From Minisyncoccota bacterium (GTDB lineage: Bacteria; Patescibacteriota; Microgenomatia; UBA1400; UBA12028), in NCBI GenBank assembly GCA_016211945.1, contig JACRHV010000006.1, positions 46,723 to 110,722 on the forward strand: a stretch of DNA of 64,000 bases, read 5' to 3'. The stretch's first letter is position 1, and each line of letters starts with the position of its first letter. The notes below the pieces were generated by a model that saw only the letters and a list, made by a program, of their open reading frames with translations, ran no database searches and was not told where the DNA came from. The translations under genes and the position numbers were made by a program. This document shows positions 2,115 to 51,830 of the stretch, piece by piece.

Positions 2115-2125
2115 GGTGTATACTC

Positions 2126-27170: not shown

Positions 27171-28628
27171 ATGGATCTTGATCGAGAAAAACTTTGGAAT
27201 ACTGCTTTGTCAGATTTAGAAAACTCTTTTTCTCCTGGAACGTTTTCAACCTGGATTAAACCTCTTCGTATTCGCGAAATAAAGGGTGTTGGAGATGATC
27301 ACCTTATGATAACGTTTGTCTGTCCCAACACATTTCACATCCGCATGATCGAGGATCGATACTATGCGCTCATTAAGGAGGCGCTCGACAGGATTACAAA
27401 AAAGAAAAACAATCTCCAATTTGAGATTAAAATTATTAACACAGAACCTCAAAAAGTGGTGGGGGAGAATCGCGACGAAGCCACTATTACACCACAAGAA
27501 AAAAAGGCAGTGCCCCAAACGCTTTTCCAGTCTCAACCCTACTCACAACCCATACAGCACCATCAAGATCAAGTGTTTCGCTCCTCTCTCCATAGGGCTG
27601 GTCTGCGCGAGGACTACACTTTCGAGACCTTCGCTGTTTCTACGAGTAATGAAATGGCACACGCCGCCGCGATCGCTGTTTCTCAAAATCCAGGAACCGC
27701 ATACAACCCCCTTTTTCTTTATGGTGGTGTCGGAGTGGGGAAGACCCATCTCATGCAGGCAATTGGAAATAATATTTTGAGGAAAAATGCTGATACATCG
27801 ATTTACTACACCACAGGAGAACAGTTTACGAATGAAATTGTCGCCGCAATACAACAGAAAAAAACCATACAACTTAAACAGAAGTTTCGCACATACAAAA
27901 TATTGTTGGTTGACGACATTCAGTTTTTGGCGGGAAAAACATCTGTTCAGGAGGAATTTTTTCACACCTTTAACGCCATTACCCCGGCGGGAGGACAGAT
28001 TATTCTTACCTCAGATCGTCCTCCGCATGAGATCAATCCACTGGAAGACCGACTAAAATCGCGATTTGAGGCGGGGCTCATTATTGATATTCAGCAACCA
28101 ACCTTCGAGCTGCGCACCGCAATCATTCTTATTAAGGCAAAAAAACTCGGCCTCCAGGTTCCTATGGATCTCGCACAGAAGATCGCAAGTGAGGTGGAAA
28201 GTACAAGAAAACTTGAGGGAATTCTCGTAAAACTTCACTCGGAAATTTCATTGTTCCACAGAGAACTCACTCCCGACCTCGTTTCTACCATGCTCGGCAA
28301 AACAGAACAGACAGAGTTTCCGCAAAACACAATTCGCCCCGCTGAGGTTATCAAGACCGTCGCAAACCATTTTCACGTTTCCACCGCCGCACTCAAGGGC
28401 CCCTCCAGAGTAAAACACCTAGTTGAGGCGAGACATGTCGCAATGTACATCCTCCATAACCAACTCAAGGTTCAACTCGAGGAGGTTGGAGGGATGTTTG
28501 GGGGAAGAGATCACACGAGCATCCTTCACGCCTCAAACAAAATACGAGACCTTATTGGAACAGATGAAACGACGCGGACAAACGTGAATGCCATCAAGAC
28601 AAGTCTTCTTTTTTCCACAACAGTGTAG
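27171..28628 (+). CDS. dnaA: chromosomal replication initiator DnaA
   Basis: 485 aa; Walker A '[10 protein letters not shown]', '[12 protein letters not shown]', C-terminal DNA-binding domain 'HVAMYILHN'. Confidence 0.95.
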
Positions 28629-28906: not shown

Positions 28907-30007
28907 ATGAAGATAAAGGTACTTCAAGAGAATCTTTTGCGTGCTGCACAGGATGTTGGTAGGGGGATCTCCACAAAACCTCCTCTCCCCATATTATCAT
29001 GCATTCTTCTCGAGACAAAACAAGGGAAACTCTCATTAAAAGCCACAGATCTCTCCGTGGGGATTCAGGCGGAGGTGGGGTGCAAGGTGGAGGAGGAAGG
29101 GATTGTTGCTGTTTCAGGGAGAACGCTTATTGAACTTCTCTCAACATTTTCCGCAGGATCGATGGAGATTGAATCTCAAGAGGGGAAAATGGTTTTACGG
29201 TCGCAAAAAACTATGTCTTCAATACAGACAGTTGACTCAAAAGACTTTCCGCCTTTTCCTGAAAGAGACAATGATGGAGTAGTTCTATCGAGCGATCAAT
29301 TTATTAGCCTTATTGAAAGAGGGGGGGTGGCGGCGGGCGTTGATGAGACGCGCCCCGTTTTTTCCTCAATGCTCTTCGAGTGTTCAATCTCTCATATTGC
29401 CGTTGTGGCGACAGACGGCTATAGATTAAGTAAAGAGGTTGTGGATGTTGCAAGTGCAAAAGAGTGTATTGCACTTGTCCCTGCAAAAATTATGAGGGAG
29501 GTTGTGCGCATTGCACAAAAACAGGGGGGAGAAGTTTCCATGGTAGTCTCAGGCCAATTGGGGCAGGTGTTTTTCGGCCTTAAAGAGTATGAGATTATAG
29601 TTCGTCTTGTTGATGCTGAGTTTCCTCAATACAGCGCCATTGTTCCCCGTGAGACACAGCTCAACATCCAAGCAGAGGCGTCGGAATTGTTGTCTGCCGC
29701 AAAAACAGCAATGGTTTTTAGCAAAGAAGTCTCTGGAATTATTCAGATGAAGATAGAAAAAAGTATCCTTATAATCTCCTCTGCCGCCGCAACAGGAGAA
29801 AGTTCTGTCGAGGTTGAGACAAAGAAAGTAAGGGGGGTTGAAGGGGAAATTTCATTTAATGGGAAATATCTCATTGAGTTCCTCTCGCTTGTAAAAACAG
29901 GAGAGATAGAGTTTGGAATGAATGAGTCGCTCAAACCGGGGATCTTTACAATCCCATCACAGAAGAATTTTTATTATGTTGTTATGCCGTTTCGGGTGCA
30001 GAAGTAG
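28907..30007 (+). CDS. dnaN: DNA polymerase III beta sliding clamp
   Basis: 366 aa; 'MKIKVLQENLLRAAQDV...LPILSCILLE' DnaN N-terminus; dnaA-dnaN synteny. Confidence 0.9.
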   Translation: MKIKVLQENLLRAAQDVGRGISTKPPLPILSCILLETKQGKLSLKATDLSVGIQAEVGCKVEEEGIVAVSGRTLIELLSTFSAGSMEIESQEGKMVLRSQKTMSSIQTVDSKDFPPFPERDNDGVVLSSDQFISLIERGGVAAGVDETRPVFSSMLFECSISHIAVVATDGYRLSKEVVDVASAKECIALVPAKIMREVVRIAQKQGGEVSMVVSGQLGQVFFGLKEYEIIVRLVDAEFPQYSAIVPRETQLNIQAEASELLSAAKTAMVFSKEVSGIIQMKIEKSILIISSAAATGESSVEVETKKVRGVEGEISFNGKYLIEFLSLVKTGEIEFGMNESLKPGIFTIPSQKNFYYVVMPFRVQK

Positions 30008-31908: not shown

Positions 31909-32793
31909 TCACGATGGAGATTGGGATGGTTGGGAATCAGAAAAAACCTCAACGGGAACCTTTGGCTCCGCGGAAGGTTGTTGTGCCGGAGTAAAAGACG
32001 CGGATTCTTGAAGAACAGTTTGTGGCAGAGCCTCAGTTTTTACCGGCAATGAAGGCCGTTCCTCTTCGCGCGTGCTGGCAGAGTCTTTTGTAAACTCCTG
32101 TAGAGCTGGTTGGTTCATCACGCCACTTAAACTTGCCTCAACCACGGCCGTCGTGTAACTTTTTGTGTCTCCCATTTTTTGCCCCTCATATGAGCCTGGA
32201 TTGTAAATGGTGTACAAAAGCTGGATGAGCTCTTGTGTGTTCAACTGTCTTGCTTGTAGTCCAATGCGACCAAACTGTGCAGTAAGGTGATCTCTCTTAG
32301 GCTCAAGGTCGGTGAGCGCTCTTTCCAGAATGTACGCGCGGTCCAACTGAAAAGAATCTTTCTTTTTAATGGAGGGAATTGCTGACGCTGCCTCAAGAGA
32401 GGTTGCTCGAAAAGGAATGACGACATAGAACTTTTTATCTAAGATGCGTCGCTCCTTTACGAGCTCGCCAACAAACTCCCGATATCGGCGAATCTGCGTT
32501 TTACGGAGAGGGGAAAGTGTTTTATCTTCCCACTCTTTGACATAGCGAAGATATGTTGTTACGTCTTTTTTTTGAGATCGGACAACTATTTCTATGGGGA
32601 AGGTGAGAGAGTTGAGGAGGCCTGCATAGGAATAGATGATCGCATCCTGCTCTTCTTCTGCGAGAAGTCCGAAGTTCAGTGATCCAACAGAAAGAACCAT
32701 CGCGACAGAACCATCTTTCAAGATAATAATGTCGTTTGTGATGTCGAAAATCTCAAGGTAGTTTTGTGTGGTAGATTGAATATGGTTTGTCAT
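31909..32793 (-). CDS. VirB4 N-terminal-domain-like protein (separate ORF preceding the ATPase)
   Basis: 294 aa; 'DIIILKDGSVAMVLSVGSLNFGLLAEEEQDAI..LLNSLTFPIEIVV' resembles extreme N-terminus of VirB4/TraC; ends in Pro/Ser/Gln-rich low complexity; 64-nt AT-rich spacer before next ORF. Confidence 0.45.
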   Translation of the reverse strand: MTNHIQSTTQNYLEIFDITNDIIILKDGSVAMVLSVGSLNFGLLAEEEQDAIIYSYAGLLNSLTFPIEIVVRSQKKDVTTYLRYVKEWEDKTLSPLRKTQIRRYREFVGELVKERRILDKKFYVVIPFRATSLEAASAIPSIKKKDSFQLDRAYILERALTDLEPKRDHLTAQFGRIGLQARQLNTQELIQLLYTIYNPGSYEGQKMGDTKSYTTAVVEASLSGVMNQPALQEFTKDSASTREEERPSLPVKTEALPQTVLQESASFTPAQQPSAEPKVPVEVFSDSQPSQSPS

Positions 32794-32807: not shown

Positions 32808-33914
32808 TTATAATGGAGAAACAATTGCTCCATGAAGAGACAGTCTCATTGTATCAAAGGAATACCCATCTTTTTCTACGACAATGTTGTATTCGCCGGA
32901 GGGAAGCGGGGTTGAGACGAAAAATTGACCAAGCTTGTTCGATCGCAGTGCGCGAAGAGGCATTCCTAGATGGTCTTGAATTTCTATAATACACTGATCA
33001 ATCATCTTTCCGGATTGGTCAAGAATCATGCCAACCACAAGATTTGGAGTAGTTGGTGTTTTGGGGAAGGGAAGTGCAGTATTTGTTTGCACTTGAGCAA
33101 GATTTTCTCCAACACGAAGTGTGGGTTGCTGAACCGTTATGGGTCGTATAGAAGAAATATTTTCATCGATAAGATGTTGTGGAGCAATACTCTCTTCTTT
33201 CTGTAATTCAACATGAATGGGATGTTGTGAGGGAATTGCCACAGGCCCTTCGTATGTTGATTGACCAAACGTTTTTGCGGCATCAAATATTGTTTTGTTT
33301 TGTTGTTTGTCTTCGTCAACAGTGATAGAAATTGGTGATTGTGCGAAGGCGTGGAGGTTGTGCATCTCAACATGAAGCGATGGTTTTTCCGGTGCAATTT
33401 TTGTAGATGATGGACGAATGTTTGTGGACGCCGGCACAGAATCATACAACGAAATGACCGATGCTGCCTGGTAAAACAGGTCAGTTTCATCTTGAGATGG
33501 AAGCGAATTTTGTGTTATAGACTGGAAATACGCGGCCGCTCGCGCGCGTTTCCTCGGAAGCGTTGTTTCTGGTGTGTTTGGAAGTGTAGAAGAAAGCGTT
33601 GAATAGGAGAAGGCCTCGGGAATTCTCGCGGTTTTTTTCCAGTAAAATTTTGTTGGATTGTAAATCGCTCGAAGAAAAGCAAGAAACCAATGGTCAAGTG
33701 GGCGCTCCTCCAGTGGGATGAACGCAAACGCTACTCCCAAGAGGACGAAGAAGATCGTGAGCGGCCACTTCAATATGCCCGGGAGATTGGAGGAGTATGA
33801 CATGAATGCGAGAAGGCCTCCGGCACCCAACTCGAAAAACTGCTTGATTGTCATGTTGCCAATAAGGTGAAATTCGTACGAGGTAATATTCTGCGGGACA
33901 GGATGCTCTTGCAT
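32808..33914 (-). CDS. VirB3-like membrane protein fused to C-terminal Ig-like (carboxypeptidase-regulatory-like) domain
   Basis: N-terminal 2 TMs with 'FFELGAGGLLAF' and 'IPLEERPLDHWF' (VirB3/PrgI-like, immediately upstream of VirB4); C-terminal beta-sandwich-like 'LGQFFVSTPLPSGEYNIVVEKDGYSF'. Confidence 0.4.
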   Translation of the reverse strand: MQEHPVPQNITSYEFHLIGNMTIKQFFELGAGGLLAFMSYSSNLPGILKWPLTIFFVLLGVAFAFIPLEERPLDHWFLAFLRAIYNPTKFYWKKTARIPEAFSYSTLSSTLPNTPETTLPRKRARAAAYFQSITQNSLPSQDETDLFYQAASVISLYDSVPASTNIRPSSTKIAPEKPSLHVEMHNLHAFAQSPISITVDEDKQQNKTIFDAAKTFGQSTYEGPVAIPSQHPIHVELQKEESIAPQHLIDENISSIRPITVQQPTLRVGENLAQVQTNTALPFPKTPTTPNLVVGMILDQSGKMIDQCIIEIQDHLGMPLRALRSNKLGQFFVSTPLPSGEYNIVVEKDGYSFDTMRLSLHGAIVSPL

Positions 33915-34022: not shown

Positions 34023-34994
34023 CTATGGTTGGACCGCGGGAACAATAACCTCCATTGTTGAAGTATAGTTTTGGGGAGTTGTGGCGGTTCCGACAAATCG
34101 AAAATACGGGAAATATGTTTGATCAACGCTTCGGTACTCCAAGGATACCTGGGTAAAAATGATTGAGGAGAAATCCTGGACAGAAACATCAATAGGGGTT
34201 TGTGCGCGATTATTCACACCAATAGTGAGAAAAGTACCACCCCCACTTTTGATTTCCTGGAGAGCGTTTTCTACTGGACGCGTGGAATATGTTTTCTCAA
34301 CTTGCGCTTGTGTGTATTGATACGGAAGAAAACGAGCAGCCTCTATCCCACGAGAGGAAAGAGTAATAAGCGCGACAGGAAGAGAAGAATTTTCAGCGTA
34401 GAGGGGAAATCCATCGACGGTTAATGTAAAGGGAATAATAATAATGGCGGAGGCGCTCACATTTTGAAGAGGCGCACCATGAAGGTCATTAAAATATAGA
34501 ACTTGATCCTTTTGTGGTGAGAGGGAAGAAAAACCAAGTGAATCGAGAAAATCTTGTGCGGGAACGAGCGCTGTTTCGTAAGAAAGAGGAGTTTCAACTT
34601 CAGGGGAAGCTTGAACAGTATATGTGACGGCCTGCGAAACTTCATCAATGAGGAGGAATGATGTCTTATTTTCTCGCACCCAATATCCCTCAACACCACT
34701 TTCTTTTAACTGTAGTTTTTGTGCGAGTTTTGTAGAGAACTCACGTAGATCTGAAGTAAGAGGTGTTGAGGAATAAAGAGGAAGAACTTGTGGGAAACTT
34801 GGGAGAGATCCAGAGAATTCAACAGATTGAAAACGCGTTGTTGTTCCAGTCGGACTCGTGAGAACAGAAGGTGATTGTTTTTTTTGTAACGCAAATTGAA
34901 GTATAAAAAGGACAAAAACAAGAAGGGCAAGAAAAAGAAGGAAAAATAAAAGAGGATGTTTTTTTATTTTGGAAACAGCAAGAAACATTTTCAT
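34023..34994 (-). CDS. membrane-anchored extracytoplasmic protein of the T4SS-like operon (VirB8-like topology?)
   Basis: single N-terminal TM 'LLFFLLFLALLVFVLFILQF' then ~280-aa Ser/Thr-rich domain; start at internal Met gives 4-nt overlap with upstream gene. Confidence 0.45.
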   Translation of the reverse strand: MKMFLAVSKIKKHPLLFFLLFLALLVFVLFILQFALQKKQSPSVLTSPTGTTTRFQSVEFSGSLPSFPQVLPLYSSTPLTSDLREFSTKLAQKLQLKESGVEGYWVRENKTSFLLIDEVSQAVTYTVQASPEVETPLSYETALVPAQDFLDSLGFSSLSPQKDQVLYFNDLHGAPLQNVSASAIIIIPFTLTVDGFPLYAENSSLPVALITLSSRGIEAARFLPYQYTQAQVEKTYSTRPVENALQEIKSGGGTFLTIGVNNRAQTPIDVSVQDFSSIIFTQVSLEYRSVDQTYFPYFRFVGTATTPQNYTSTMEVIVPAVQP

Positions 34995-37900
34995 GGTGTA
35001 GGTCCTCCCGCACATTCTGATTTTACAGGGTCATTAACTTTCGGAAGTGTGGGGAAAATAGGAAGATTTGTGTAAATATGCCCCTTAGCCTTCTGGTTCT
35101 GCCTTTCATAGTGTAGGTGTATTCCAAAAGAAAACCCAGTATTTCCCGTTAGACCAAGATGGCTTCCGGGATTCACGCGAACCCTTTGGGAGATGTTTCC
35201 GGGATTTAAATTCCCATTGAACGCGGACATATGACCAAAAATAAACACAATTCCTTCGTCTGTATGCAAAACAACATGGTTGCCATAAAGCACGTAAGCA
35301 AGCGGAGAAGACGTCATGGGCACAAAGTATGCGTATCCACCAAATGGAGAGTATATGGGGGTTGGCCCGGTGGCCGCGGTACCAATGTCTATCGCGTTTC
35401 CAGACAGATCCCAAGTTGCGTGACCGGGATCAGCAAGTTGTGTAATAACACCCGTCGTTGGCCAGCAGCCCTTATGAGCCACGCCATCCAACCCCTCAAC
35501 GTTCACGTTATTTACACTGCTTATATTTGCCACAGCATCTCGGTTGGTCACAAATGGCCCCAAATTCAGAATATTCGCAACTCCCCCTATCGTTAACGCC
35601 CCCATCGCTGTCCAGGCGATTGTTGTTCCGCTAATAGTGGTACTTGCTAAGGTACTCAGTGATTGAATCCCGTTCGAGAGAACAGCAGATCCTGCGCGTA
35701 AACCGCTTATTATCTGCTGTCCAACTCCTTTGGCAAGCAGCTTTATTCCAGATAAAGCGGAAGAAAATGCGTGTGAGAAAAAAGAAAAAACACCCTGAAA
35801 AGATTGAAAGAGTTTAAAAATTTGCACAAGAGATGCGATAAGTGACGCAAAACCCGCAAGTAGGGAGAGGATCCCGAGTCCGATGAGAAAGTTGACAAAC
35901 TTACCAAGATACTCGATTCCTTTGAGGTTTTGTTCGATAATTCCATCAAGAAAACCTCCAATAATGGGAATACTTGCGATCCATGACTTAATCGCCATCG
36001 CGGTGTCGAACGCGACGTCCCAAGCCTGTCCAGCTTCGGGGCCGGCAAATAACGTTAATAATGCGCCAATTGCTTGTTTTCCTCGTTCGATATCGGCAGA
36101 CCTGTCGGAGTTTCCTAAAAACTGTTGATGTTGAGCTTCGCCGCTGAACTCAGATATCTCGAGAATATATGATGGGGCCGTAAAAAGAAGTTCGAACTCA
36201 TCTGTTCCAAATCCGCGCATCATGTACTCGAAAAAAACAGCCTCATTACCCCACGCATCAGCATTACCATGAATAAAGTCTTGAATTTCTCCTGCGCTCC
36301 AAATCTGTGAGGCAAGGTATTGAAAAAATCCCCGTTTCGCATGAATCCTTCGGGCAGTTTGTTGCGCCTCATTTTTCTGATCAAGCGCTTTCTGTATAAA
36401 AGCAGACTGTTTATGAAGCTCTCCGTCTGTAATCTTTCCGTTTTTATGCTGTTGTTTCAGGACGGCTAACTGGTTTGCGAGCGCAGTTTTTGGCGAAAAC
36501 AAACTATGAGACATGACCTTGTGACCGTTGATGTGCTGTCCTTGTTCATCAACATCGCTCATATCCTCAAGGAGTTTTTGTAGAAGCGGGTTTACGGATG
36601 AAGATTTTAGGCTGAGCGGATCTGCATAGAGGGCTGCAGGATTGTCTGACGCAAGATATGCTTCATATGCCAGCGCATCCATATATTGGGTAAGCAATAT
36701 GGCAAAAGCGACATTGTCGTTATGGAACGCTCGACGAATACGCTCTTGTGTTTGTGGTTCTGTACGAAATTCGTTGAGGACTGCTTGAGCAAAATCTTCT
36801 AAGTCTTTTGAGGTGAGATTGGTGGAGTTTTGTCGCAAAAGCGATTTTGCTTGCAGAGAGAGAAGGAGTTTGTCTATTTGTGAGTAGGTTAGCCCTTCTT
36901 TTTGTAAGGACTCGCGAAGAAAATCCTCAAAAGATCGCGAAGATATGTCTTTTATTTGTGAAGCCTCTTGGAGAGAAGAAAGACGTTCTTCTTTTTGTAC
37001 ACCATCTTGCTCAAGGGCATTCCAGTATTGCGCGTCAGCCGCAAGCGCAAGATTATCTGGAGTAATCCCATGCTTCTCACTGAACGCACGGAGATTCTCA
37101 AGAGATTCTCCTTTTTTGATGAGCCTATTGGAGATGAGGTGTTGTTCGAGCGCCGCCTGAAAAGATGGATTGTGCTGTAGACTGATAAGAGTACTAATAT
37201 AAAGATTTATTCTTGCAGAGCCTTCACCCCCAGTTGAAGTTAAAAATGCGGAAAGACGCGTAGAATCAAGCCTTTGGAGTTCGTAAAGAATGGTAGGAGT
37301 GATGTGTCGAGAAATTTGTGACTCAAGCGCTTGGAATCCTTTTGGATTTTTATCAGGATTGATTCCGGCTTGGGCGGCAACAGCGTAAAGAATGGCGTGT
37401 CGAATCCGCGCGACTTCATCGCTTAATGCGCGATCCTGAACAACAAGTTTTTCGATGGAGATTTGCTGATCTACAGGTTTTTTTGTCTCTATTTTCTCTT
37501 TTTCTTCACGAAGAACTTCTTCTGCGGCGTCAGAGTCAGTTTCTTGCGTTGATGAAGTAGAGAATGTGGCTCCGGCTGTTTGTTTTGGAGCGGAAGCCGC
37601 CTTTTCCTGCGGTATTGGCTCTGGCTCTTCTGCTTTTTTTGTTGCTGTAACCTCTTGTTTTACTCCGTATGAGCTAAACTCCAACAAGATTTCCGTTAGA
37701 GTAAGTGCGGCCTCAATAGACTCAATGACTCTAGATTTTTTGTCCGCCCTGTTTATGCCGAAAAAATATTCGCGTTGGATATAGTCCCAAAGATGTGTAT
37801 TGTATGATGTTTCATCTCGATGAAGAAAAAGAAACTCATCAACTGTAGCAAGCCAAATGATTAATGCATGGAATTCCACCTCTTCTTTTCTTGGATGAGG

Positions 37901-38161
37901 ATTGAGATGGGGGTAGAGGTGATAAATAACCGCACTTTTTGTGAGTCCTACAAGCGTTTTTCCTTCAGATTCTGAAACAAAGCTATCGGCGCTGTATGTT
38001 CCGTCACTAAAAAGATAGAAAAAAACGGTATCATTGCGATACCGCTCAAGCATCTCAAGAACATCTCTTCCTTTGATCGCGTATTGGCGGTCTATGGCGT
38101 TTTTTAGAGCATCAGATATCGTGTGTTCCGTCTGGATATGAGCCATGAATGTATTGTACAT
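34991..38161 (-). CDS. 1056-aa protein: large N-terminal domain, TM cluster, C-terminal M23 (LytM-type) peptidoglycan endopeptidase
   Basis: TM 'FLIGLGILSLLAGFASLIASLV'; C-terminal 'GNHVVLHTDEGIVFIFGHMS...LGLTGNTGFSFGIHLHYE' (M23 HxxxD...HxH motifs). Confidence 0.65.
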   Translation of the reverse strand: MYNTFMAHIQTEHTISDALKNAIDRQYAIKGRDVLEMLERYRNDTVFFYLFSDGTYSADSFVSESEGKTLVGLTKSAVIYHLYPHLNPHPRKEEVEFHALIIWLATVDEFLFLHRDETSYNTHLWDYIQREYFFGINRADKKSRVIESIEAALTLTEILLEFSSYGVKQEVTATKKAEEPEPIPQEKAASAPKQTAGATFSTSSTQETDSDAAEEVLREEKEKIETKKPVDQQISIEKLVVQDRALSDEVARIRHAILYAVAAQAGINPDKNPKGFQALESQISRHITPTILYELQRLDSTRLSAFLTSTGGEGSARINLYISTLISLQHNPSFQAALEQHLISNRLIKKGESLENLRAFSEKHGITPDNLALAADAQYWNALEQDGVQKEERLSSLQEASQIKDISSRSFEDFLRESLQKEGLTYSQIDKLLLSLQAKSLLRQNSTNLTSKDLEDFAQAVLNEFRTEPQTQERIRRAFHNDNVAFAILLTQYMDALAYEAYLASDNPAALYADPLSLKSSSVNPLLQKLLEDMSDVDEQGQHINGHKVMSHSLFSPKTALANQLAVLKQQHKNGKITDGELHKQSAFIQKALDQKNEAQQTARRIHAKRGFFQYLASQIWSAGEIQDFIHGNADAWGNEAVFFEYMMRGFGTDEFELLFTAPSYILEISEFSGEAQHQQFLGNSDRSADIERGKQAIGALLTLFAGPEAGQAWDVAFDTAMAIKSWIASIPIIGGFLDGIIEQNLKGIEYLGKFVNFLIGLGILSLLAGFASLIASLVQIFKLFQSFQGVFSFFSHAFSSALSGIKLLAKGVGQQIISGLRAGSAVLSNGIQSLSTLASTTISGTTIAWTAMGALTIGGVANILNLGPFVTNRDAVANISSVNNVNVEGLDGVAHKGCWPTTGVITQLADPGHATWDLSGNAIDIGTAATGPTPIYSPFGGYAYFVPMTSSPLAYVLYGNHVVLHTDEGIVFIFGHMSAFNGNLNPGNISQRVRVNPGSHLGLTGNTGFSFGIHLHYERQNQKAKGHIYTNLPIFPTLPKVNDPVKSECAGGPTP

Positions 38162-38166
38162 GAAAA

Positions 38167-39978
38167 CTACGACACAAGCCGCGCAGGACTTCCAACGAGC
38201 GCTGAATATGTCATTTCAAATACACCAAATCGCATGCCACCCGCATATGCGATTGAAAGCCAGGAGGGTAGATGTTCAGTATCGTGCGTGTAAGAAGTTG
38301 GTTTTTCTGATGACGCATTTTTTTCTTCAGAATGGCGCACAAGCGATTTTAAGGTATCTTTTGCTTCACAAAAATAACAAATTCCGCACTCGCCAACCCA
38401 ATCGCCAACATGTTTTCCCGCATGTTTTTTTTCACGTTTACGCTCACACAGAGGATTTTTACACCCCTCATCAGAGAACTTCCACGCTGTGTCAAATCGG
38501 TGCGCACCAATGAAGGAACGGAGCTGTTCTTGCGTAAAATCTTGACTACGAAAAAATGAAAGAAGTGCATCAGAAGTTCCAAAAGATTGTAGGTCTGGGA
38601 TGCCTAAAGAGGAGGCAAATGAAGGTTGTGATAACACCGTTCGTATGCCGCCGAACGGAGTTCCCGCTGCGCAGTCGACGACTGACAAAAAGTCAAACTG
38701 TAGAGAACCCATGGTTGGTGCTTTTTTAATAATGTGGGACAAAAATGTTTCTCGTACTTCCGGAAGTTTTTCTGAAGCAAGAGTTTTTCGCCGTTTTGGA
38801 TGCAGAAATTGTTTGTATGCATCCCACACCGCATTTGAATTAAAATCGCCATCGTCAAATCCAAGACCATTCATAGCAACCTCGTTTGCGATGCTCAGCG
38901 CAGCTTCTGAATACGCGTCGTGGTGAAGATATTCTTCAATCAGAACAGAGGTCATGGTCTCCACAACCCTCCTCATTCTTTTTTCGCGAGTATTGAATCG
39001 CGCAATTGCTGTTTGGTGTTCTGTAAGAATAGTTTGAATCTGAGGGGAATCAAGAGAAGCTTTGTGGAGAAGCGCCGTGAAGAATGATTGTGTGTCCAAA
39101 TGTTGAAACATGAAATCAACAGGAAGAATCTGTTGCATTAGTTCCGGTTCTGTTTGGGGGAGAGGGGGTTGGGAGGTATGGAGAGATGCATGTTCCATGA
39201 GATGTGAGAGCTCAGACAAAGGAAGAGCGGCCTTGTACTGATGAAGAAACACAAAGAATTGGTGGCCTTCCGGTAAATAGGGGTTGTATGCGAGCTGGAC
39301 GGCCTCAAGAAATGATTCTCTGTCTGGATGATATACTTGGTGATCTGGCATCGCAAAAATATATTTTTGACCAACAGATGTCGCCCTATCAGCTTCTTTT
39401 CGCATGTGCGGAGGAATAGTCTTTCGGATGTCCTGAGGAAGAGAACCTGAATATGAAATAAATCCTTCAGGAGGAGTGTGTGCGATGTGTTCAATAAGCA
39501 TGTGTGGCGCTGTATGAGAAAGTTCGGAGCTCATAAGAGTCATCACTTCCTTAAGTTGAGCTGCTTCTCTTGCATACCGCTGTGCTCGTTCTAGGTCATG
39601 ATTCTTCATGGCAAGCATCATCGCTTTGCGCTGCTGATCCATAAGACCTTGGTGTGCGTATTGAACTCCCACCAAATCGTCGATATGCAATGTTTGTGCT
39701 GTATGCCACAGAGGAGTGACGACGTTGCAGTAAAAACGAAAACGCATTTCTTCTTGGAGATACGTCGCGTACTCTTTGTGTAAAAGTTCCGAAACGTGCG
39801 GTCGAACGCGCTTTTTTGTAATGAATGAAGGAGTGTTTCCGTAGTGCTGAAAAAGAGATTCAATGGGACCACGGAGTGTGTGGTAGAGATTGAATCGAGG
39901 AACAGGTATGCCAGTGCGTTGTTGAATATATTCTTTGGTTGGAGAACGTCTGGTACGAGTTTCGGCTGCAACGGCCAT
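38167..39978 (-). CDS. hypothetical 603-aa protein (first gene of the minus-strand T4SS-like operon)
   Basis: long ORF, no TM or P-loop, Cys cluster 'CERKREKKHAGKHVGDWVGECGICYFCEAKD'; no family recognised. Confidence 0.5.
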   Translation of the reverse strand: MAVAAETRTRRSPTKEYIQQRTGIPVPRFNLYHTLRGPIESLFQHYGNTPSFITKKRVRPHVSELLHKEYATYLQEEMRFRFYCNVVTPLWHTAQTLHIDDLVGVQYAHQGLMDQQRKAMMLAMKNHDLERAQRYAREAAQLKEVMTLMSSELSHTAPHMLIEHIAHTPPEGFISYSGSLPQDIRKTIPPHMRKEADRATSVGQKYIFAMPDHQVYHPDRESFLEAVQLAYNPYLPEGHQFFVFLHQYKAALPLSELSHLMEHASLHTSQPPLPQTEPELMQQILPVDFMFQHLDTQSFFTALLHKASLDSPQIQTILTEHQTAIARFNTREKRMRRVVETMTSVLIEEYLHHDAYSEAALSIANEVAMNGLGFDDGDFNSNAVWDAYKQFLHPKRRKTLASEKLPEVRETFLSHIIKKAPTMGSLQFDFLSVVDCAAGTPFGGIRTVLSQPSFASSLGIPDLQSFGTSDALLSFFRSQDFTQEQLRSFIGAHRFDTAWKFSDEGCKNPLCERKREKKHAGKHVGDWVGECGICYFCEAKDTLKSLVRHSEEKNASSEKPTSYTHDTEHLPSWLSIAYAGGMRFGVFEMTYSALVGSPARLVS

Positions 39979-44465: not shown

Positions 44466-46154
44466 TTAACTCTTCTTTGTGGCGTCTTTCTTATCTGCGA
44501 AAGTTGTATCTCCAACTTTATTTGCAGCCCAATGACCGCCTTTTTTAAATTCTTCTTGGATAGGAACAAACGGGTCCGTTCCTGTTCCGCGAACAAAGTT
44601 TCCAGCGCTAATAAATGCACCTTTGCCAGCATCTGCAGCGGCACCAACTCCAACAGCCCCCTTCTTCAAAATATTCTCTCCAGAAACTCCGCCATATGGC
44701 AACTTTGTTGTATCTGTCCAGTCCAACCCATCCACCAACTTGCCACCCTTCCACCCTTTTTGCAAGTTGGCACTGATCTTTGGTATATACTGGTCGAATG
44801 GGCTCTTCGGATTCCCCAACATCTTGAGAGATATATCGATCGCTTCTGGCATGAGCATGAGGATGCCAATAGCAATGAGGCCTTGGATAGCACCAATGCC
44901 CTTAGAGTCAGCCCAAAATGTACTAATTTGTGGAGCTTGAAATCCCGCAGCCTGACTTGAGTCTGTACCATCAATCCATTTATATCCAACCCCCTTTGTT
45001 TCGCTTTGACCCCCTAAAACCATGGCGAGAAATATCATTGTGATAACAACGGGAAACGGTAGAAGTGTGGCAAAAAGACTGCGCAGCCACTCACTAAAAT
45101 CAAGTTTTCCGGTAAAAAGGTTTAACAAAAGTAATATTGGTGAAAAAATAACACTGATAATAAACTTGACATAACTCATGAGCAGTTTAAAAAATGTTTG
45201 TGTGACAGAGAAGAAAATAACAATGGCAAAAACAAGCTCTGCAATGATAGCACCCGAAACATTCGCAATTTTCCCAAGTCCTTGAAGATAAATATTGCTG
45301 TCTTTGCTGGAGAAAAACCCTTCAACAAGTTTCCCAACAGACAGTGCAGCTCCAGCCGTTGGATTTCCACTTCCTCCACCGAATATGAGTTGTAGTCCAT
45401 TTGAAAAAATATTGTTCGAAAGTGCAATTTTTTCAAGCGTAATTGGTTGTCCAAGTGGATCGGTAAGCGTTGGAGGAAGCAAATTTTGTAACTTAAAGAT
45501 GCCTATGATGAGATATATCATCAAATACATGATATCGATAAGAAAACCACTAATTGCAAACGAAAAAGTAATAGCAAGCGCGGTCCAGAGAAAATTTGGG
45601 ATAGCACTCGTTATGGTTACCGCTGTCTGTCCTCCCCATTTTTGCCGGAACATAATCATAAACCCGATGTACATAAATGCCAGAACAAAGAAGATATACG
45701 CAATGTCGCGAAATGCCTTCCATACTTGAAGAATAGGGCTCAAACTTTTAAACCCAATACCTTGTGCATACGCTTGAGGAACAAAAGGAGAATGTTCTAA
45801 AAGATCTGCAATCCAAACACCAGTATTTGCCGGAGGATGTGTGATCATGGCGGCCATCATATTTCCCATTTGTGGGACAACCCCCTGAATAACACTCTCT
45901 CCATCAGTCGAACGACCTCCAATAAGGATATCGGTCCACGAATGACTATTTCGCACCCAAGTTCCCAGATTATATGCCTCATTGTTAATATTACCCGTAT
46001 CTTGTGTGTGTTTGACCGCGTCATTAAATTCTTCATTGCTTGGGGTTACGAGCGATCTTCGCAAGTCTTCTGAAGGCCTTTCTGCAACAGCAAACACGGT
46101 ATGGGGAGTAAAAAAAAGCACAATGATCACAAGAAAAGAGAAAACGCGTTTCAT
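44466..46154 (-). CDS. VirB6/TrbL-like polytopic membrane protein with signal peptide and Gly-rich C-terminal tail
   Basis: start placed at 'MKRVFSFLVIIVLFFTPHTVFAVA' signal peptide; ~120-aa extracytoplasmic N-domain then at least 6 TM segments ('IAYIFFVLAFMYIGFMIMF', 'LWTALAITFSFAISGFLIDIMYLMIYLIIGIF' ...). Confidence 0.5.
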   Translation of the reverse strand: MKRVFSFLVIIVLFFTPHTVFAVAERPSEDLRRSLVTPSNEEFNDAVKHTQDTGNINNEAYNLGTWVRNSHSWTDILIGGRSTDGESVIQGVVPQMGNMMAAMITHPPANTGVWIADLLEHSPFVPQAYAQGIGFKSLSPILQVWKAFRDIAYIFFVLAFMYIGFMIMFRQKWGGQTAVTITSAIPNFLWTALAITFSFAISGFLIDIMYLMIYLIIGIFKLQNLLPPTLTDPLGQPITLEKIALSNNIFSNGLQLIFGGGSGNPTAGAALSVGKLVEGFFSSKDSNIYLQGLGKIANVSGAIIAELVFAIVIFFSVTQTFFKLLMSYVKFIISVIFSPILLLLNLFTGKLDFSEWLRSLFATLLPFPVVITMIFLAMVLGGQSETKGVGYKWIDGTDSSQAAGFQAPQISTFWADSKGIGAIQGLIAIGILMLMPEAIDISLKMLGNPKSPFDQYIPKISANLQKGWKGGKLVDGLDWTDTTKLPYGGVSGENILKKGAVGVGAAADAGKGAFISAGNFVRGTGTDPFVPIQEEFKKGGHWAANKVGDTTFADKKDATKKS

Positions 46155-46218
46155 GTCTTCGTATTGTACAGAACAATCGAGAGAACAACAAGCATTTTCC
46201 TGGTACAATACCAGAGAT

Positions 46219-49200
46219 ATGGTTCCTCGATTTTCTCTCTTTATTACCTCTGTTATTTCCATTTTTGTTTTTCTGGCATTTCCTTCCGGTATTCGAGCGG
46301 TAGAGTTGGGAACGCATGTTGCCCATTTTGATCGTGGAGCGGAGATCGGTGTTTTAGGCCTTATTCGAAGCAAGTTGAGCAAACAAGATGGATATCCCGT
46401 TACCATCAACATTGATCCGCAATGGTCAACAGCAGAGATCCAAGAACTTGCCGACAAGGCAGAAGGCTTTCGTGTTGCTCTTCGTATTATTAGCGTTTCA
46501 AGCAAAGCAACCCCAGAAGAAATGCAAACGCTTGTTCAACAACTCAATGGTGTGCGTTGGAAGACTACAGGAAAACCTGTTGTTGTGTTGGGAAACGAAC
46601 TGAATAACTTAGTAGATGAATGGAAAAGTATTGCTGTTTCAGTTGAGGCTGCGGGAGCTGCGTACACACCACTTCATGATGTGATATGGTCAGGGTCGCC
46701 AAAATTAGACATGGGAAGGTACGACCTTGCTGCTGCAACCATTGACCCATACCATCCGAACAACTGGAAACTTTTTGTGTCAGGGGCGGGGAGGGCATAT
46801 ACACAGCACAATACAATCTTTGTAGCAAACATCTATGAAAACAGTGCAGAGGACACAAAAAAACGGATTGAAGAAATCAAATCGGGAATTTCCGGAGTAC
46901 CGTCAAAAACAATACTCACAGAGTATGGACCAAAAGACCCCAAATCGCCGCTTGCTGAGTACATGCGGTTCTATAAAGAGAACGCTCCGCCATCCAATGT
47001 GGAATATGCGACCGCACTACTCGCTAATTATTGTAAGAAAGATAAGGCAGTTTTTGGATATTTCTACTATATAGAAGGAAAAGTGTACACGATTGATGGT
47101 GATGAGGTGGACCCACAAACCTGTCTCGGGGCAAAATCACTCACTGATGAATCAAAAACCCCAGATGATGAGGTAGACGGCATCTATGTCTACAAAGATA
47201 TCTATAAAAATGTGCTGTTAAATGGGGAAAAAGGAGGGAAGGAAAGTGCGTCAAGATACGTCATGATGTGTGCTCCGCAATTTTGGACAGACGCTGAGAT
47301 TCAAGACCAAGATAAAAAAATCTATTGGGAAAAACTTGGCGACAAGGCAAAAACACTCAGCGAGTACTGCACAAGTGAGATAGGATCAAATACGAACGAA
47401 CCAAACTGCGTATTCGATCCTGTCACTGCAAACTTTACTGTTATTAATGATAATCTTACGGTTCCGTTGTATAGGAAGGCGACCTTTAATGATAAAGGTC
47501 AGCAAATGGACAATAACAGGGCAGAAAGCATTGAGTCGTTTTTTGGAACGAACACAAAAGAGGGAAGAAAAACAGGGGATCCGCTTTTATATTCACCCAA
47601 CGTCAAACTTCTTTCAAAGGCGCAGTACTGCACTCAAACAGTTCGATACTTAAAGGCAATTGAGATGATGTGCCAAGAACCGCAAGCACAGCAATCAACA
47701 ACAGACAAAGAAATAGTGCCTAGGGGAAAATGCACATTGAACAATGAATTCGAGAACAGTCGAAAACAAAAAGTGCGCTATTTGGATATTCTCAAACAAG
47801 TAAAAGACAACGCGGCTGCTCAGGGGCTACAGACACCAGAAGACTATTGTGATCTTGTAGTAAAAAAACAAGACCCCAATCTCATGAAGGACCTTGCCCA
47901 AGTCCAACCGCTCACAAAAAATGCGTTTAAAATTGGATACCTTGTCTATTACAATACCGGGAGGTATAAAAAAGACTCAAATGATCCGGAAGACAAAGCC
48001 GCTTTTCAGGATAGCTCAGAATATTTCCACCCGGTCTACAGAACATTGCGCGATTACTATGCCAATGTGACATTCCAAGTAATTCCCTTCTTAGTTCCTG
48101 CAAATGTATTTAGCACCTCGTCACAGGAAGACGTTGTTGGAAATTCGTTCGCCTCGTTTGATAGTCCGTACACAACAGTATTTCAAACACTCATGCCGCA
48201 AGCAAAGATAAACCAATTGGCAGAAAGTGAACAAAAAAGAAGAGTGATGATTGAGTCTCAACTCGATCAACCATGGAATGCATTCAATGACGCTAGTCAG
48301 GAAAAACCGTACATTCAATGTCCTGTTTGCGATGACAGTTATAACAAGAGAGGATATGTTCCGTCGGTGGGGTCTTTAGCGGCAAACAAAACGTATCTCG
48401 CTTTTGCAAAAACGATATGGAGACGCATCAATGCGGGAATCTACACAAAAGAATTTGTGCAAAATTTGGATGTAAAACAGGGAAATGAACTCGTGGCCCA
48501 ACCTCCTGATATTTGGAATAGTTGCAATGTGGCGCCGGAACTCGTCCGCGGTGAGTCTGCGCAAGCACTCCATTCACAGGGTGGCATTTCCTTGATAAAG
48601 GATGGAAAAGAAACGTTGTGGGGGAAGGTGAAGCAGTCGGCGACAGAGATTACATCGCTCATCCGTGCTCCTAAGGGTACTCGGAGAGATCCGTATGAAT
48701 ATTACGTTCGGGGATATCTCCTTTTACCGCAAGAATACGGATATCTTCTCTCGACAGAACAGGATTTTCTGCGAGCGTTGATCCCGTACTCTGCACAAAA
48801 AAATATTTTAGAGACAGAGCAAAAGAAGAACGACTTTAACGCATTTGGTAATATCGCAGGACTTGATCCGTCTAAAGCAGACTATGATAAACAAGTTCCG
48901 CTATGGAATCGTTTTCTTCGCTTAAACGGCCAGGTTTTTGGACTAAACGATCTGACCGCAGACTCTACGGGAAAGCACGGCAAAGATGGGAATCCGGACA
49001 CATATTACACAGAATCTAAAGATGAATATGAAGCACGCGTCGCAAAAGCAAGACAAGATTGTGCAAATAGAGGGATTTTGCCAAGAGACTGCTCAATTCC
49101 GGAGCGGAAGAAAACAGAGATTACAGCAAAGCAAACATCACAAAATCCAGGATATAAAGAGGGAAAAACCGATTTTCGTCCCATCCTTCCGGGAGGATGG

Positions 49201-50028
49201 TTAGCGCGGGGCATCTTTGAGTTGATGGCACACATTACTTCGAGTAAAGGAAGTGCCAACTTTCAAGATAAATATTGTGGACTGGAAGACTATTTATTGG
49301 GGACAAACTGTGCGGGTGCGGGAAGTACAAGTTCGATCAAAAATACAACAACCTCATCTACAAAGGGAGATATCGCGTGTATAAATGTATGGGTTGATGA
49401 AGCAACGGCACAGGCACACGCACAAGACATTTTAGCAAGTCTTCCTTCACGCGCAGATTGGGGGAAATATTTTTCTGGTTATTTGAGTGATCCGGTAAGG
49501 CAGTGCAAGGATCCAACCACAAACCCAAGTCCGAGTGAATACGATAGCGTGGCAAAGCAATATCTCTTTGAGTCTGTTCCTGAATGCGGTGGAGTGTCGT
49601 GCTATTCGTATATTGTTCAGCGCACATTATCTGCAAAGACATCGGACGGTAAGGTTGTTGATCCCTACATCGCAATTTCTATTGCATTAAATGAAAATGG
49701 TGGACTAAAAACAGCGAGGAAAGATCGGATGAGTCAACATTTTGGAGTGGTGACTCCTATTACGGGTCACTCAAAAGAATGTCCGGAGGATAACGAGTAC
49801 ATGGGCAGAATTGATGAGAAACTCGACATCATGCTCCAAACGCTCATCGCAGGATATAAGGGAAAGGATACTTTGGGTGCAGATGGTGTTGCGGCATTAG
49901 AGCGATATAAATCGGGAAGTAATGCAAGACCGCTTGAAGATCAAACGTATAGTCAGAAAATGATACAACTTACACAGATCATCAGCGGTAACGCATACTC
50001 ACCACTGTGTACAGGGAAAACTCTTTAA
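46219..50028 (+). CDS. giant (1269-aa) secreted protein; N-terminal region with GH-A-like 'VVVLGNELNN' motif
   Basis: start placed at 'MVPRFSLFITSVISIFVFLAFPSGIRA' signal peptide (track ORF start at 45982 would overlap divergent gene); 30+ Cys; no repeats. Confidence 0.6.
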   Translation: MVPRFSLFITSVISIFVFLAFPSGIRAVELGTHVAHFDRGAEIGVLGLIRSKLSKQDGYPVTINIDPQWSTAEIQELADKAEGFRVALRIISVSSKATPEEMQTLVQQLNGVRWKTTGKPVVVLGNELNNLVDEWKSIAVSVEAAGAAYTPLHDVIWSGSPKLDMGRYDLAAATIDPYHPNNWKLFVSGAGRAYTQHNTIFVANIYENSAEDTKKRIEEIKSGISGVPSKTILTEYGPKDPKSPLAEYMRFYKENAPPSNVEYATALLANYCKKDKAVFGYFYYIEGKVYTIDGDEVDPQTCLGAKSLTDESKTPDDEVDGIYVYKDIYKNVLLNGEKGGKESASRYVMMCAPQFWTDAEIQDQDKKIYWEKLGDKAKTLSEYCTSEIGSNTNEPNCVFDPVTANFTVINDNLTVPLYRKATFNDKGQQMDNNRAESIESFFGTNTKEGRKTGDPLLYSPNVKLLSKAQYCTQTVRYLKAIEMMCQEPQAQQSTTDKEIVPRGKCTLNNEFENSRKQKVRYLDILKQVKDNAAAQGLQTPEDYCDLVVKKQDPNLMKDLAQVQPLTKNAFKIGYLVYYNTGRYKKDSNDPEDKAAFQDSSEYFHPVYRTLRDYYANVTFQVIPFLVPANVFSTSSQEDVVGNSFASFDSPYTTVFQTLMPQAKINQLAESEQKRRVMIESQLDQPWNAFNDASQEKPYIQCPVCDDSYNKRGYVPSVGSLAANKTYLAFAKTIWRRINAGIYTKEFVQNLDVKQGNELVAQPPDIWNSCNVAPELVRGESAQALHSQGGISLIKDGKETLWGKVKQSATEITSLIRAPKGTRRDPYEYYVRGYLLLPQEYGYLLSTEQDFLRALIPYSAQKNILETEQKKNDFNAFGNIAGLDPSKADYDKQVPLWNRFLRLNGQVFGLNDLTADSTGKHGKDGNPDTYYTESKDEYEARVAKARQDCANRGILPRDCSIPERKKTEITAKQTSQNPGYKEGKTDFRPILPGGWLARGIFELMAHITSSKGSANFQDKYCGLEDYLLGTNCAGAGSTSSIKNTTTSSTKGDIACINVWVDEATAQAHAQDILASLPSRADWGKYFSGYLSDPVRQCKDPTTNPSPSEYDSVAKQYLFESVPECGGVSCYSYIVQRTLSAKTSDGKVVDPYIAISIALNENGGLKTARKDRMSQHFGVVTPITGHSKECPEDNEYMGRIDEKLDIMLQTLIAGYKGKDTLGADGVAALERYKSGSNARPLEDQTYSQKMIQLTQIISGNAYSPLCTGKTL

Positions 50029-51260: not shown

Positions 51261-51830
51261 TTATTTACATCCTCCGCGTCCGTCCGGATTTACCCCAGAG
51301 TCGCATGGAGCGTTTCCCGCATTACAGTTACAGGTGTCGCTAATCCCAAATCCACACATACCCTGATTTTTTCCACCGCATGTATTACAAATATTTGGAT
51401 TATTGAGAGTAATTGGAGTTTTCCCCTGACAATACGGATTCGAAGACCCCGTTCCAGTAGAGGAGGTTCCGCCAAGATCTCCAGAGATGCGTGTGAAATC
51501 TGGTGCCAAGAGATCAATTCCAAGTGCGGTGCCAAAGAATGTACTGATGGCCGCGACTGAGAATAATACAGCCAATCCAATAAGACCCTGTGTGATTCTA
51601 TCTTTTGCTTGCTCGATTTTCCCCTTATCACCTCCCGCAGAAATCCAGGTCAACCCACCCATAATCATGTATGCAACAACCGCCAATCCACCAAGAACGA
51701 GGGAAGTTTGCCACAGAATTCCAATATATTTCCCCAAACCTGTACCAGCAACATCGGGATTAGCTGCGTTTTGCAGTCCTGCAGGGAGAGCGGGATTTGA
51801 GATGTCGGCCAACATTGTAGATAACGTCAT
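51261..51830 (-). CDS. VirB2/TrbC-like two-TM pilin candidate, paralog 4, with Cys-rich C-terminal extension
   Basis: 'AYMIMGGLTWISAGGDKGKIEQAKDRITQGLIGLAVLFSVAAI' then 60-aa tail with 10 Cys ('CNTCGGKNQGMCGFGISDTCNCNAGNAPCDSG'). Confidence 0.55.
   Translation of the reverse strand: MTLSTMLADISNPALPAGLQNAANPDVAGTGLGKYIGILWQTSLVLGGLAVVAYMIMGGLTWISAGGDKGKIEQAKDRITQGLIGLAVLFSVAAISTFFGTALGIDLLAPDFTRISGDLGGTSSTGTGSSNPYCQGKTPITLNNPNICNTCGGKNQGMCGFGISDTCNCNAGNAPCDSGVNPDGRGGCK

Follow-up and report, generated by a model that had tools for sequence, protein, structure and literature searches.

A 64,000-nucleotide stretch of DNA from a Minisyncoccota bacterium (GenBank assembly GCA_016211945.1, contig JACRHV010000006.1, positions 46,723 to 110,722 of the forward strand; here called the window) carries, at 34991..38161 on its minus strand, the gene for a protein of 1056 residues that ends in a peptidase domain of the M23 (LytM) type and is encoded inside the operon of a type IV secretion system (T4SS). 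We propose, with a probability of about 0.55, that this M23 protein is an integral subunit of a chromosomal T4SS, in which a cytoplasmic scaffold and a membrane anchor carry an extracellular, exchangeable wall peptidase that is paired with a cognate partner protein. The lineage hosting this T4SS is a Microgenomates/Paceibacteria-like Patescibacterium. The proposal is built on the strict conservation of active-site residues, on the constant position of the large protein in related T4SS loci, and on the repeated exchange of its C-terminal head together with the next gene.

The M23 protein and its active site

The original prediction had given the position and length of the reading frame without a strand, and both agree with the list of open reading frames (ORFs), which places it on the minus strand. 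An orthologue with 91% identity and identical gene order is present in a Logan assembly, and it was the single sequence returned by a word-indexed protein search with the full-length M23 protein as query. Because of this orthologue in the same gene order and the low ratio of nonsynonymous to synonymous substitution rates (dN/dS) against it (0.078 overall), the ORF is a real, constrained gene under strong purifying selection. By part, dN/dS is 0.096 in the N-terminal domain, 0.068 in the central region, 0.046 in the membrane region and 0.052 in the M23 domain, and the charged low-complexity linker is the only relaxed part (0.57). In an alignment of family members, the starts of relatives coincide with Met6 of the M23 protein, and the true start may be this codon at nt 38146, with a product of 1051 residues. 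Alignment of 13 full-length relatives, hydropathy and structure models define the parts of the protein, which are given here with the residues of the active site:

34991..38161, minus: whole ORF, 1056 aa plus stop, the sole ORF there, with an ATG start
37622..38161, minus: N-terminal helical domain, residues 1-180, without signal peptide and conserved in the close subfamily only
37442..37621, minus: low-complexity charged linker, residues 181-240, K/E-rich in relatives
37148..37432, minus: helical-bundle module, residues 244-338, common to most long family members
36092..37147, minus: rest of the central helical region, residues 339-690, presumably cytoplasmic
35558..36085, minus: membrane region by hydropathy, residues 693-868, including an IPIIG motif
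35090..35470, minus: M23 (LytM-type) domain by Pfam, profiles and Foldseek, residues 898-1024, opening with the G-C-W-P family motif
35420..35422, minus: His914, proposed first zinc ligand, His in 130/146 relatives
35387..35389, minus: Asp925, predicted zinc-ligand Asp of the H...D motif, 146/146
35231..35233, minus: His977 (in FGHMS), predicted catalytic His, 146/146
35111..35119, minus: His1015-Leu-His1017, HxH motif, 145/146, with Glu1019 next

The C-terminal LytM/M23 domain is beyond reasonable dispute. Pfam Peptidase_M23 (PF01551) matches residues 924-1024 with 37.5 bits against a cut-off of 28.7, the family profile finds solved M23 structures at E 1e-20, and Foldseek aligns this region (pLDDT ca. 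70-80) with probability 1.0 and target-normalised TM scores of 0.45-0.65 to Csd1/2, DipM, EnpA, LytM and lysostaphin. Matches to PHROG and to PDB sequences concur, and the Pfam and NCBIfam scans of the protein returned only M23, with no SLT, lysozyme, CHAP or NlpC match. Both strings on which the domain had first been recognized, FGHMS and GIHLHYE, are present and contain H977 as well as H1015 and H1017, with the catalytic His in the central strand of the fold and the HxH motif formed by H1015-L-H1017. Glu1019 is conserved in 133 of the 146 relatives, and D925, H977, H1015 and H1017 are invariant across relatives that are just 25-48% identical.

The first zinc ligand needs a closer look. When the protein is aligned with solved M23 enzymes, either pairwise or by profile, the His of the HxxxD motif in the M23B register corresponds to G921 (nt 35399-35401), which lies in an unconserved column. 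The family instead has a conserved upstream His at a variable distance from the Asp, from x6 to x12 with x6 as the commonest spacing, and this is His914 at x10 in the window protein. The string HATWD (914-918) resembles an HxxxD motif by chance, as conservation falls on D925 and not on its D918. With His914 as a putative ligand, the long loop between His and Asp instead of HxxxD would resemble that of the LasA/beta-lytic protease group (MEROPS M23A), in which the HxH motif and the catalytic His are kept as well. For LasA itself, Spencer et al. (2010) reportedly described His23 and Asp36 as zinc ligands with a long intervening loop. In a MAFFT alignment with the LasA sequence, which we checked against PDB 3it5, these two residues fall on the columns of H914 and D925, whereas HMMER aligns only the C-terminal two thirds of LasA and not the part with His23, so that the equivalence of His914 and His23 rests on MAFFT and on conservation. 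By eye, both proteins also share a W...G...Q...H pattern ahead of the Asp, though LasA is a small secreted enzyme, unlike the M23 protein. The GCWP motif, the LasA-like spacing of the predicted ligands and a flanking pair of cysteines mark an M23 subgroup.

Since the active-site residues are kept and the substitute His914 is conserved, the M23 domain is probably active with an M23A-like arrangement of ligands. Where degenerate LytM domains have lost several metal-binding or catalytic residues, only the canonical first His is missing here. The catalytic residues whose loss had been named beforehand as the finding that would overturn the assignment are therefore retained, with the caveat that the first His is His914 and stands outside the HxxxD register.

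The earlier description of an N-terminal region of ca. 600 residues that is helical and looks cytoplasmic holds as far as its helical character and the lack of a signal peptide go, with a cytoplasmic location suggested by the latter; the soluble part is longer, at ca. 690 residues. Within it, the module of residues 244-338 is a bundle of five helices that is present in 56 of ca. 150 family representatives, and positions E249, R252, G266, P289, L295 and F334, among others, are near-invariant in the 13-member alignment of the module (A1). An AlphaFold2 model of residues 239-363 reaches pLDDT 88 and shows six DSSP helices, the first five of which form the bundle. No informative PDB match was found for the module, and a word-indexed protein search with its alignment returned nothing. 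The suggestion that the large N-terminal part has an additional scaffold function gains weight from this conserved and confidently modeled module. In P0055, P0070 and P0052 (1593-1628 aa) the module is present as a tandem duplicate.

Hydropathy of the membrane region shows one strongly hydrophobic segment (ca. 752-780, nt 35822-35908) and weaker ones at 693-712, 786-806 and 840-868; several hydrophobic segments thus exist as had been predicted, but with a single strong one the word cluster was generous. Lys and Arg residues are biased to the N-terminal side of the first transmembrane (TM) helix (2.7 vs 0.9 on the C-terminal side, 85 relatives), which speaks for an N-in orientation. There are just two cysteines in the protein, Cys899 (nt 35465..35467, minus) and Cys1050 (nt 35012-35014, minus), which bracket the M23 domain and are jointly present in 118 of 139 relatives; Cys1050 is part of the ca. 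30 residues that follow the domain. Because this conserved pair flanks it, the M23 domain would be located outside the cytoplasm and may be stapled there by a Cys899-Cys1050 disulphide. We rejected the protein as a channel subunit of VirB6/PrgH type, which needs at least five TM helices, given that one strong and two or three weak ones were found and that a separate polytopic ORF exists in the window.

A conserved T4SS operon with an exchangeable head cassette

The M23 gene is the second of six in an operon on the minus strand, listed here in the order of transcription:

38167..39978, minus: soluble protein of 603 aa, 5 nt from the M23 gene
34991..38161, minus: M23 protein
34023-35015, minus: partner, a single-pass protein with N-terminal TM helix, as listed ORF of 330 aa; from Met8, 34023..34994 with 323 aa
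32808..33914, minus: PrgI-family (VirB3-like) protein, by Pfam
31909..32793, minus: TrsD-like protein resembling the VirB4 N-terminus, by NCBIfam and PMC12102498
29982..31844, minus: VirB4-type ATPase (CD1110 family), by Pfam and NCBIfam, abutting dnaN and dnaA

In the same order, the genes are separated by 5 nt, a 4-nt overlap, 108 nt, 14 nt and 64 nt, with the probable start of the partner overlapping the M23 stop as ATGA. The M23 gene does not directly precede the VirB3/VirB4 genes as originally stated, since the partner gene comes before PrgI and the TrsD-like gene before VirB4. In Patescibacteria, T4SS loci have been described as proximal to the origin, poor in relaxases and split into TrsD and VirB4, with PrgI and VirB2-like pilins beside dnaA/dnaN (PMC12102498). 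VirB4, a separate TrsD, PrgI, VirB2-like pilins and an origin-proximal chromosomal site are all found in the window, and its layout is that of the Patescibacteria-clade T4SS (MPF-FATA-related; Quinonero-Coronel 2025). The original label of a Gram-positive T4SS was right about the monoderm-type operon (PrgI, TrsD, CD1110-type VirB4), but the location at dnaA/dnaN identifies it rather as the chromosomal T4SS of Patescibacteria.

An exhaustive search of 1.84 billion representatives recovered 235 proteins at E <= 0.001. About ten of them are alike over the full length (28-31% identity), while many more, with 1200-1700 aa, are alike in membrane region and M23 head. On their contigs, four distant family members (976-1290 aa) repeat the gene order of the window, i.e., a protein of ca. 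520-600 aa, the big M23 protein, a single-pass protein of ca. 330-350 aa, PrgI, TrsD and VirB4. Many family members (P0015, P0016, P0018, P0020, P0022, P0034 and others) carry an apparently beta-rich spacer of ca. 150-200 aa between the last hydrophobic helix and GCWP (example sequence '...YVTIEKRAFITGCPENKCENP...') that the window protein does not have; the distance from the last TM helix to the head has a median of 154 aa in the family and is ca. 30 residues in the window protein. A tblastn search among 72,556 plasmids gave generic M23 matches only and thus no sign of a plasmid-borne ancestor.

Related loci were found in GTDB genomes with the VirB4 of the window as probe, and the 80 nearest VirB4 loci all belong to the Candidate Phyla Radiation (CPR; Microgenomates/Woesebacteria, Paceibacterota and Cerribacteria). 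Many of the metagenome-assembled genomes concerned (L008, L011, L014, L016 and others) are titled "uncultured Pseudomonadales bacterium", in conflict with their gene content and their neighbors in the VirB4 tree, and these titles are probably default labels. In 49 GTDB loci, 7.5 kb or more of sequence is available upstream of virB4, and in 48 of these an ORF of 700 aa or more on the same strand ends 2.3-5.2 kb upstream of virB4; this position is retained also where dnaA is not adjacent. With the large ORF in 48 of 49 loci, the M23 protein is a standard component of this T4SS lineage and not an accessory of one genome.

The C-termini of these 48 large ORFs are not all of the same kind, with 34 M23 domains, 13 zincin-like domains with an HExxH motif and one other. 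The junction is sharp: the two 1071-aa proteins P0003 (M23) and P0006 (HExxH) have 58% identity across residues 1-862 and are unrelated beyond, with the similarity ending just past the last hydrophobic helix. The following gene changes together with the head. Hidden Markov models (HMMs) of two partner families find an M23 head with a partner of ca. 330 aa in 43 loci and an HExxH head with a partner of ca. 200 aa in 18, and in no locus is a head paired solely with the partner of the other type. Four loci are irregular or truncated, including L047, which is of HExxH type and matches both partner families. The partner in the window is a member of the ca. 330-aa family, which, L047 aside, accompanies M23 heads only. 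When the two families are compared with hhalign, only the N-terminal membrane helix aligns (probability 60%), and the ectodomains are unrelated.

This exchange has happened between close relatives. L002 and L088 are 93% identical in VirB4, 83% in TrsD, 78% in PrgI and 61% in the upstream protein, yet their heads are unrelated and so are their downstream genes (348 vs 188 aa). Among complete GTDB loci, the one closest to the window in VirB4 is L008 (87%), which is of the HExxH type, while the truncated locus L010 has 92% VirB4 identity over a partial stretch. In a neighbor-joining VirB4 tree of 61 loci, which is crude but unambiguous for the close pairs, M23 and HExxH loci are intermingled, and parsimony requires at least 12 changes between them. 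Head and following gene thus form a cassette that relatives have repeatedly exchanged as one, with the sharp junction to unrelated C-terminal domains and the co-varying downstream gene that characterize polymorphic toxin/immunity systems.

Several further observations concern the heads, the partners and their loci. The comparison of L002 and L088 reveals a steep gradient of conservation from VirB4 through TrsD and PrgI to the scaffold and the upstream soluble protein (both ca. 60%); the same was noted for the window vs L008/L009, with far more rapid evolution of membrane-distal or envelope components than of the ATPase. The HExxH head, a C-terminal domain of ca. 200 aa, is found in L016, L017, L019, L023, L025, L041, L042, L046, L052, L055, L063, L064, L071, L008 and L088; it often opens with G-C-[FIY], and many copies end with FGGQE[YF]. 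Its assignment to a known family failed, with only sub-threshold Pfam matches to zincins (ATLF, M57, M91, DUF6055). A third head type that is neither M23 nor HExxH occupies the same scaffold position at L066:3087-7094 and is followed by a 224-aa single-pass protein (L066:7103-7777) that matches the HMM of the ca. 200-aa partners. At L005:4733-8631, on the contig that carries P0002, an overlapping ORF of 336 aa encodes the M23 head on its own, either through a frameshift (by sequencing error or pseudogenization) or as a natural split. VirB8/NTF2-like or PepSY-like identities gained no support for the partner, which has no PDB match and gives isolated sub-threshold Pfam matches (DUF4309/BamE, DUF4901/FTP) that do not recur among members. 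Genes related to that of the 603-aa protein are found in the same position in L001, L002, L005, L009 and L088, with relatedness measured for L009 (27% identity) and for L002 vs L088 (see above), and no known family was matched by the 603-aa protein.

Surroundings of the operon in the window

The window has a G+C content of 43.6% and carries, beyond the operon, dnaA (27171-28628), dnaN (28907-30007), yidC, leuS and a gene for a DUF4012 protein. Other features related to secretion are:

51261-51830, minus: T4SS pilin (VirB2-like), 30.4 bits vs a Pfam cut-off of 26.6
52206-52718, minus: T4SS pilin (VirB2-like), 22.9 bits, under the Pfam cut-off of 26.6
44466-46505, minus: ORF of 679 aa with ca. 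seven hydrophobic segments and TTG start, a VirB6-like candidate

On the opposite (plus) strand, a 1348-aa ORF (45982-50028) overlaps this 679-aa ORF by ca. 520 nt; both begin with TTG, which leaves their true starts uncertain, and both lack a Pfam match. A scan of window ORFs, though not of all of them, revealed no relaxase. Just past the T4SS pilins, genes resembling pilO and pilN of type IV pili (53456-54705, minus) make two surface machineries adjoin. PrgI proteins of this lineage are ca. 370-400 aa long, far exceeding the length of classical VirB3, and those of the window (32808-33914), L006 and L007 have a C-terminal extension with a weak CarboxypepD_reg-like (Ig-like) character. Nearby, an ORF of 1328 aa (59679-63665, minus) with a transglutaminase-core match close to its C-terminus (residues 1068-1134) encodes a further very large protein of envelope type. 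At the other end of the window, an Rfam group I catalytic intron match covers the full model at 2118-2333 (plus; 56.1 bits vs a gathering threshold of 50), and a tRNA-Met(CAT) gene is located 117 nt downstream (2450-2523, plus).

Proposed role, competing explanations and significance

We envision that the ca. 690 N-terminal residues of the M23 protein would form a cytoplasmic helical scaffold, including the bundle module, that presumably docks onto the base of PrgI, TrsD and VirB4, while one strongly and two or three more weakly hydrophobic helices would anchor the protein in the membrane. Outside the membrane, the M23 domain, probably stapled by its disulphide, would act as a zinc endopeptidase with His914, Asp925 and His1017 as zinc ligands and His977 and His1015 as catalytic residues. 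It would cut peptide cross-links in the peptidoglycan and so create a local opening in the wall for the secretion channel with its VirB2-like pilus. The head and the translationally coupled single-pass protein would function as the exchangeable unit, in which the partner most likely binds to the head and serves as its inhibitor, regulator or adaptor. Catalysis appears to matter because even very divergent relatives keep the active-site residues unchanged, and it appears to be the selected function because heads are replaced by other peptidases and not by inert domains.

Several points weigh against this proposal. The canonical His of HxxxD is missing (G921), the full-length AlphaFold model is poor (pLDDT 50), and a glycosidase domain of VirB1 type is absent. 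The scaffold has no sequence or fold link to any known T4SS subunit. Crude hydropathy counts two passes in 41 relatives, three in 20 and one in 16; the number of passes is ambiguous, and an even number would leave head and N-terminus on one side of the membrane. Finally, an enzyme that cuts the presumably stable wall of its own cell has no obvious need for repeated head swapping among close relatives.

It is this last point, the difficulty of explaining frequent cassette exchange for an enzyme dedicated to the own wall, that raises the model of a host-directed weapon, i.e., a peptidase delivered or exposed by the T4SS and aimed at the peptidoglycan of the host bacterium, with the partner as an immunity protein or inhibitor that guards the own wall. 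Swapping of heads would then track host wall chemistry or an arms race. The behavior of the cassette is indeed typical of polymorphic toxin/immunity pairs (43 vs 18 loci with unrelated partner ectodomains, at least 12 switches on the VirB4 tree, and unrelated heads and partners in L002 and L088 despite near-identical VirB4), and the predicted topology of the partner, an N-terminal anchor with a domain outside, would suit immunity to an extracellular wall enzyme in a monoderm. Patescibacterial T4SSs, moreover, are mostly without relaxases and essential for epibiotic growth (PMC12102498, PMC10633639). However, a strongly hydrophobic segment would normally insert into the membrane of the producer, and a head only ca. 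30 residues past the last hydrophobic helix would be tethered close to that membrane. No recognizable trafficking domain (by Pfam, NCBIfam and PHROG) or cleavage site was found, and at 190-350 aa, the partners would be large immunity proteins. Binding or inhibition by the partner is putative, and its Pfam hints are below threshold and not recurrent. We consider the weapon model possible but doubtful.

Two other explanations would remove either the enzymatic activity or the link to secretion. M23 peptidases commonly act in division and elongation, many housekeeping genes are found near dnaA, and the protein could accordingly be a wall enzyme for growth or division that merely neighbors the T4SS genes near the origin without any role in secretion. 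This is very unlikely given its tight same-strand packing with start/stop overlap within the T4SS operon and its fixed place with respect to PrgI/TrsD/VirB4 (48 of 49 loci, some of them without an adjacent dnaA); furthermore, no homologue of the scaffold was seen outside a T4SS context (among the 1.84 billion representatives and on the contigs of the four distant members). Alternatively, the LytM domain could have lost metal binding and serve as a non-catalytic module for protein-protein interactions like those of SpoIIQ, EnvC/NlpD or PrgK. In favor of this idea, the column of the canonical HxxxD His is unconserved, degenerate structures of EnvC and SpoIIQ are among the profile matches, and the LytM domain of PrgK in another T4SS is degenerate and metal-free (PMC11323569). 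Against it, the remaining active-site residues are invariant at 25-48% identity, the substitute His914 with its M23A-like spacing is present in 130 of 146 relatives, and positional orthologues carry an intact-looking HExxH motif, as expected for catalysis and not for a specific binding surface. We regard a non-catalytic scaffold as unlikely and as less probable than the weapon model.

The integral-subunit reading also finds parallels in known systems. PrgK (pCF10), TraG (pIP501), TcpG (pCW3) and CwlT (ICEBs1) are likewise encoded in monoderm-type T4SS clusters and have a membrane-tethered, extracellular peptidoglycan-hydrolase part, as is predicted for the M23 protein. The resemblance is closest for PrgK, which also has a LytM-type domain and whose gene adjoins prgL just as the M23 gene adjoins that of its single-pass partner; PrgK binds the VirB8-like PrgL, a precedent for a hydrolase beside its partner (PMC11323569). 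Unlike the degenerate PrgK domain, the M23 domain of the window keeps its active-site residues. Beyond the generic M23 fold, these four proteins show no sequence relationship to the M23 protein, and neither the cytoplasmic scaffold of 690 aa nor an exchangeable head-partner cassette is found in any of them. The original view of a T4SS wall-remodeling enzyme is thus upheld insofar as a predicted peptidoglycan peptidase is encoded inside a T4SS operon, but this enzyme has no domain of VirB1/TrsG/CD419 type and, with no family match, is no homologue of PrgK, TcpG, CwlT or VirB1.

A second parallel is SEML1_0007 of the Saccharibacterium Ca. Southlakia epibionticum ML1, a protein of 1113 aa encoded in a T4SS cluster and essential in Tn-seq, with a C-terminus (residues 951-1105) of Hedgehog/DD-peptidase fold and zinc-peptidase type (Wang et al. 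2023, PMC10633639 Table S2). By its published description, it resembles the M23 protein in its size of ca. 1100 aa and its place in an origin-proximal T4SS cluster next to virB4, and its structural neighbors include a CPR "Peptidase M23 domain-containing protein". In contrast to the M23 protein, SEML1_0007 has another head fold, is encoded downstream of virB4 instead of upstream of PrgI, and has a lysozyme/Cys-peptidase protein as neighbor. That yet another peptidase type occurs as its head adds to the argument for catalysis as the selected function.

With the CdiA-CT/CdiI, Rhs and LXG systems, the M23 protein shares a conserved N-terminal body, a sharp break and a changing C-terminal enzyme domain with a changing downstream gene. 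Here, however, the body is a membrane protein encoded in a secretion-core operon and not a secreted filament, the heads are of only two or three types and are wall peptidases instead of nucleases or pore formers, and immunity by the partner is putative. Phage ejection and tape-measure proteins such as an internal protein of cyanophage A4 (PDB 9k2v) are also long, helical, M23-bearing and envelope-crossing, but the likeness is confined to the M23 domain. Kinship with this cyanophage pre-ejectosome protein, the top full-length Foldseek match, was rejected at a TM-score of 0.09 with a model of pLDDT 50. In an unrelated patescibacterial operon, alternative peptidases have been described on one membrane-anchored coiled-coil (eLife RP108061).

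The patescibacterial T4SS itself and homologues of peptidases and lysozyme beside virB4 in one species have been published, and a survey of VirB1-type hydrolases linked few of them to virB4, leaving the function of wall opening without a carrier (PMC12102498). In the literature, we found no description of the scaffold family, of head exchange or of the co-varying partner, and our analysis defines two unannotated partner families. The large subunit described here is nearly universal and uncharacterized, and we propose it as the carrier of wall opening in Microgenomates/Paceibacteria-like lineages. In the sole species that has been genetically tested, the T4SS is essential for growth on the host (PMC10633639, PMC12857230). 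A bolder form of the proposal, which we offer tentatively and with low confidence, is a built-in modular "drill head" in which the scaffold presents an exchangeable peptidase (M23, HExxH zincin or LAS-type), each with a cognate single-pass inhibitor or immunity protein, as a cassette tuned to the peptidoglycan of the host. If so, the cassette would be a determinant of the range of hosts that the epibiont is able to breach and exploit as food. Patescibacteria represent a very large share of bacterial diversity, and the M23 protein and its exchangeable cassette bear on how these epibionts cross two cell walls and penetrate their hosts.

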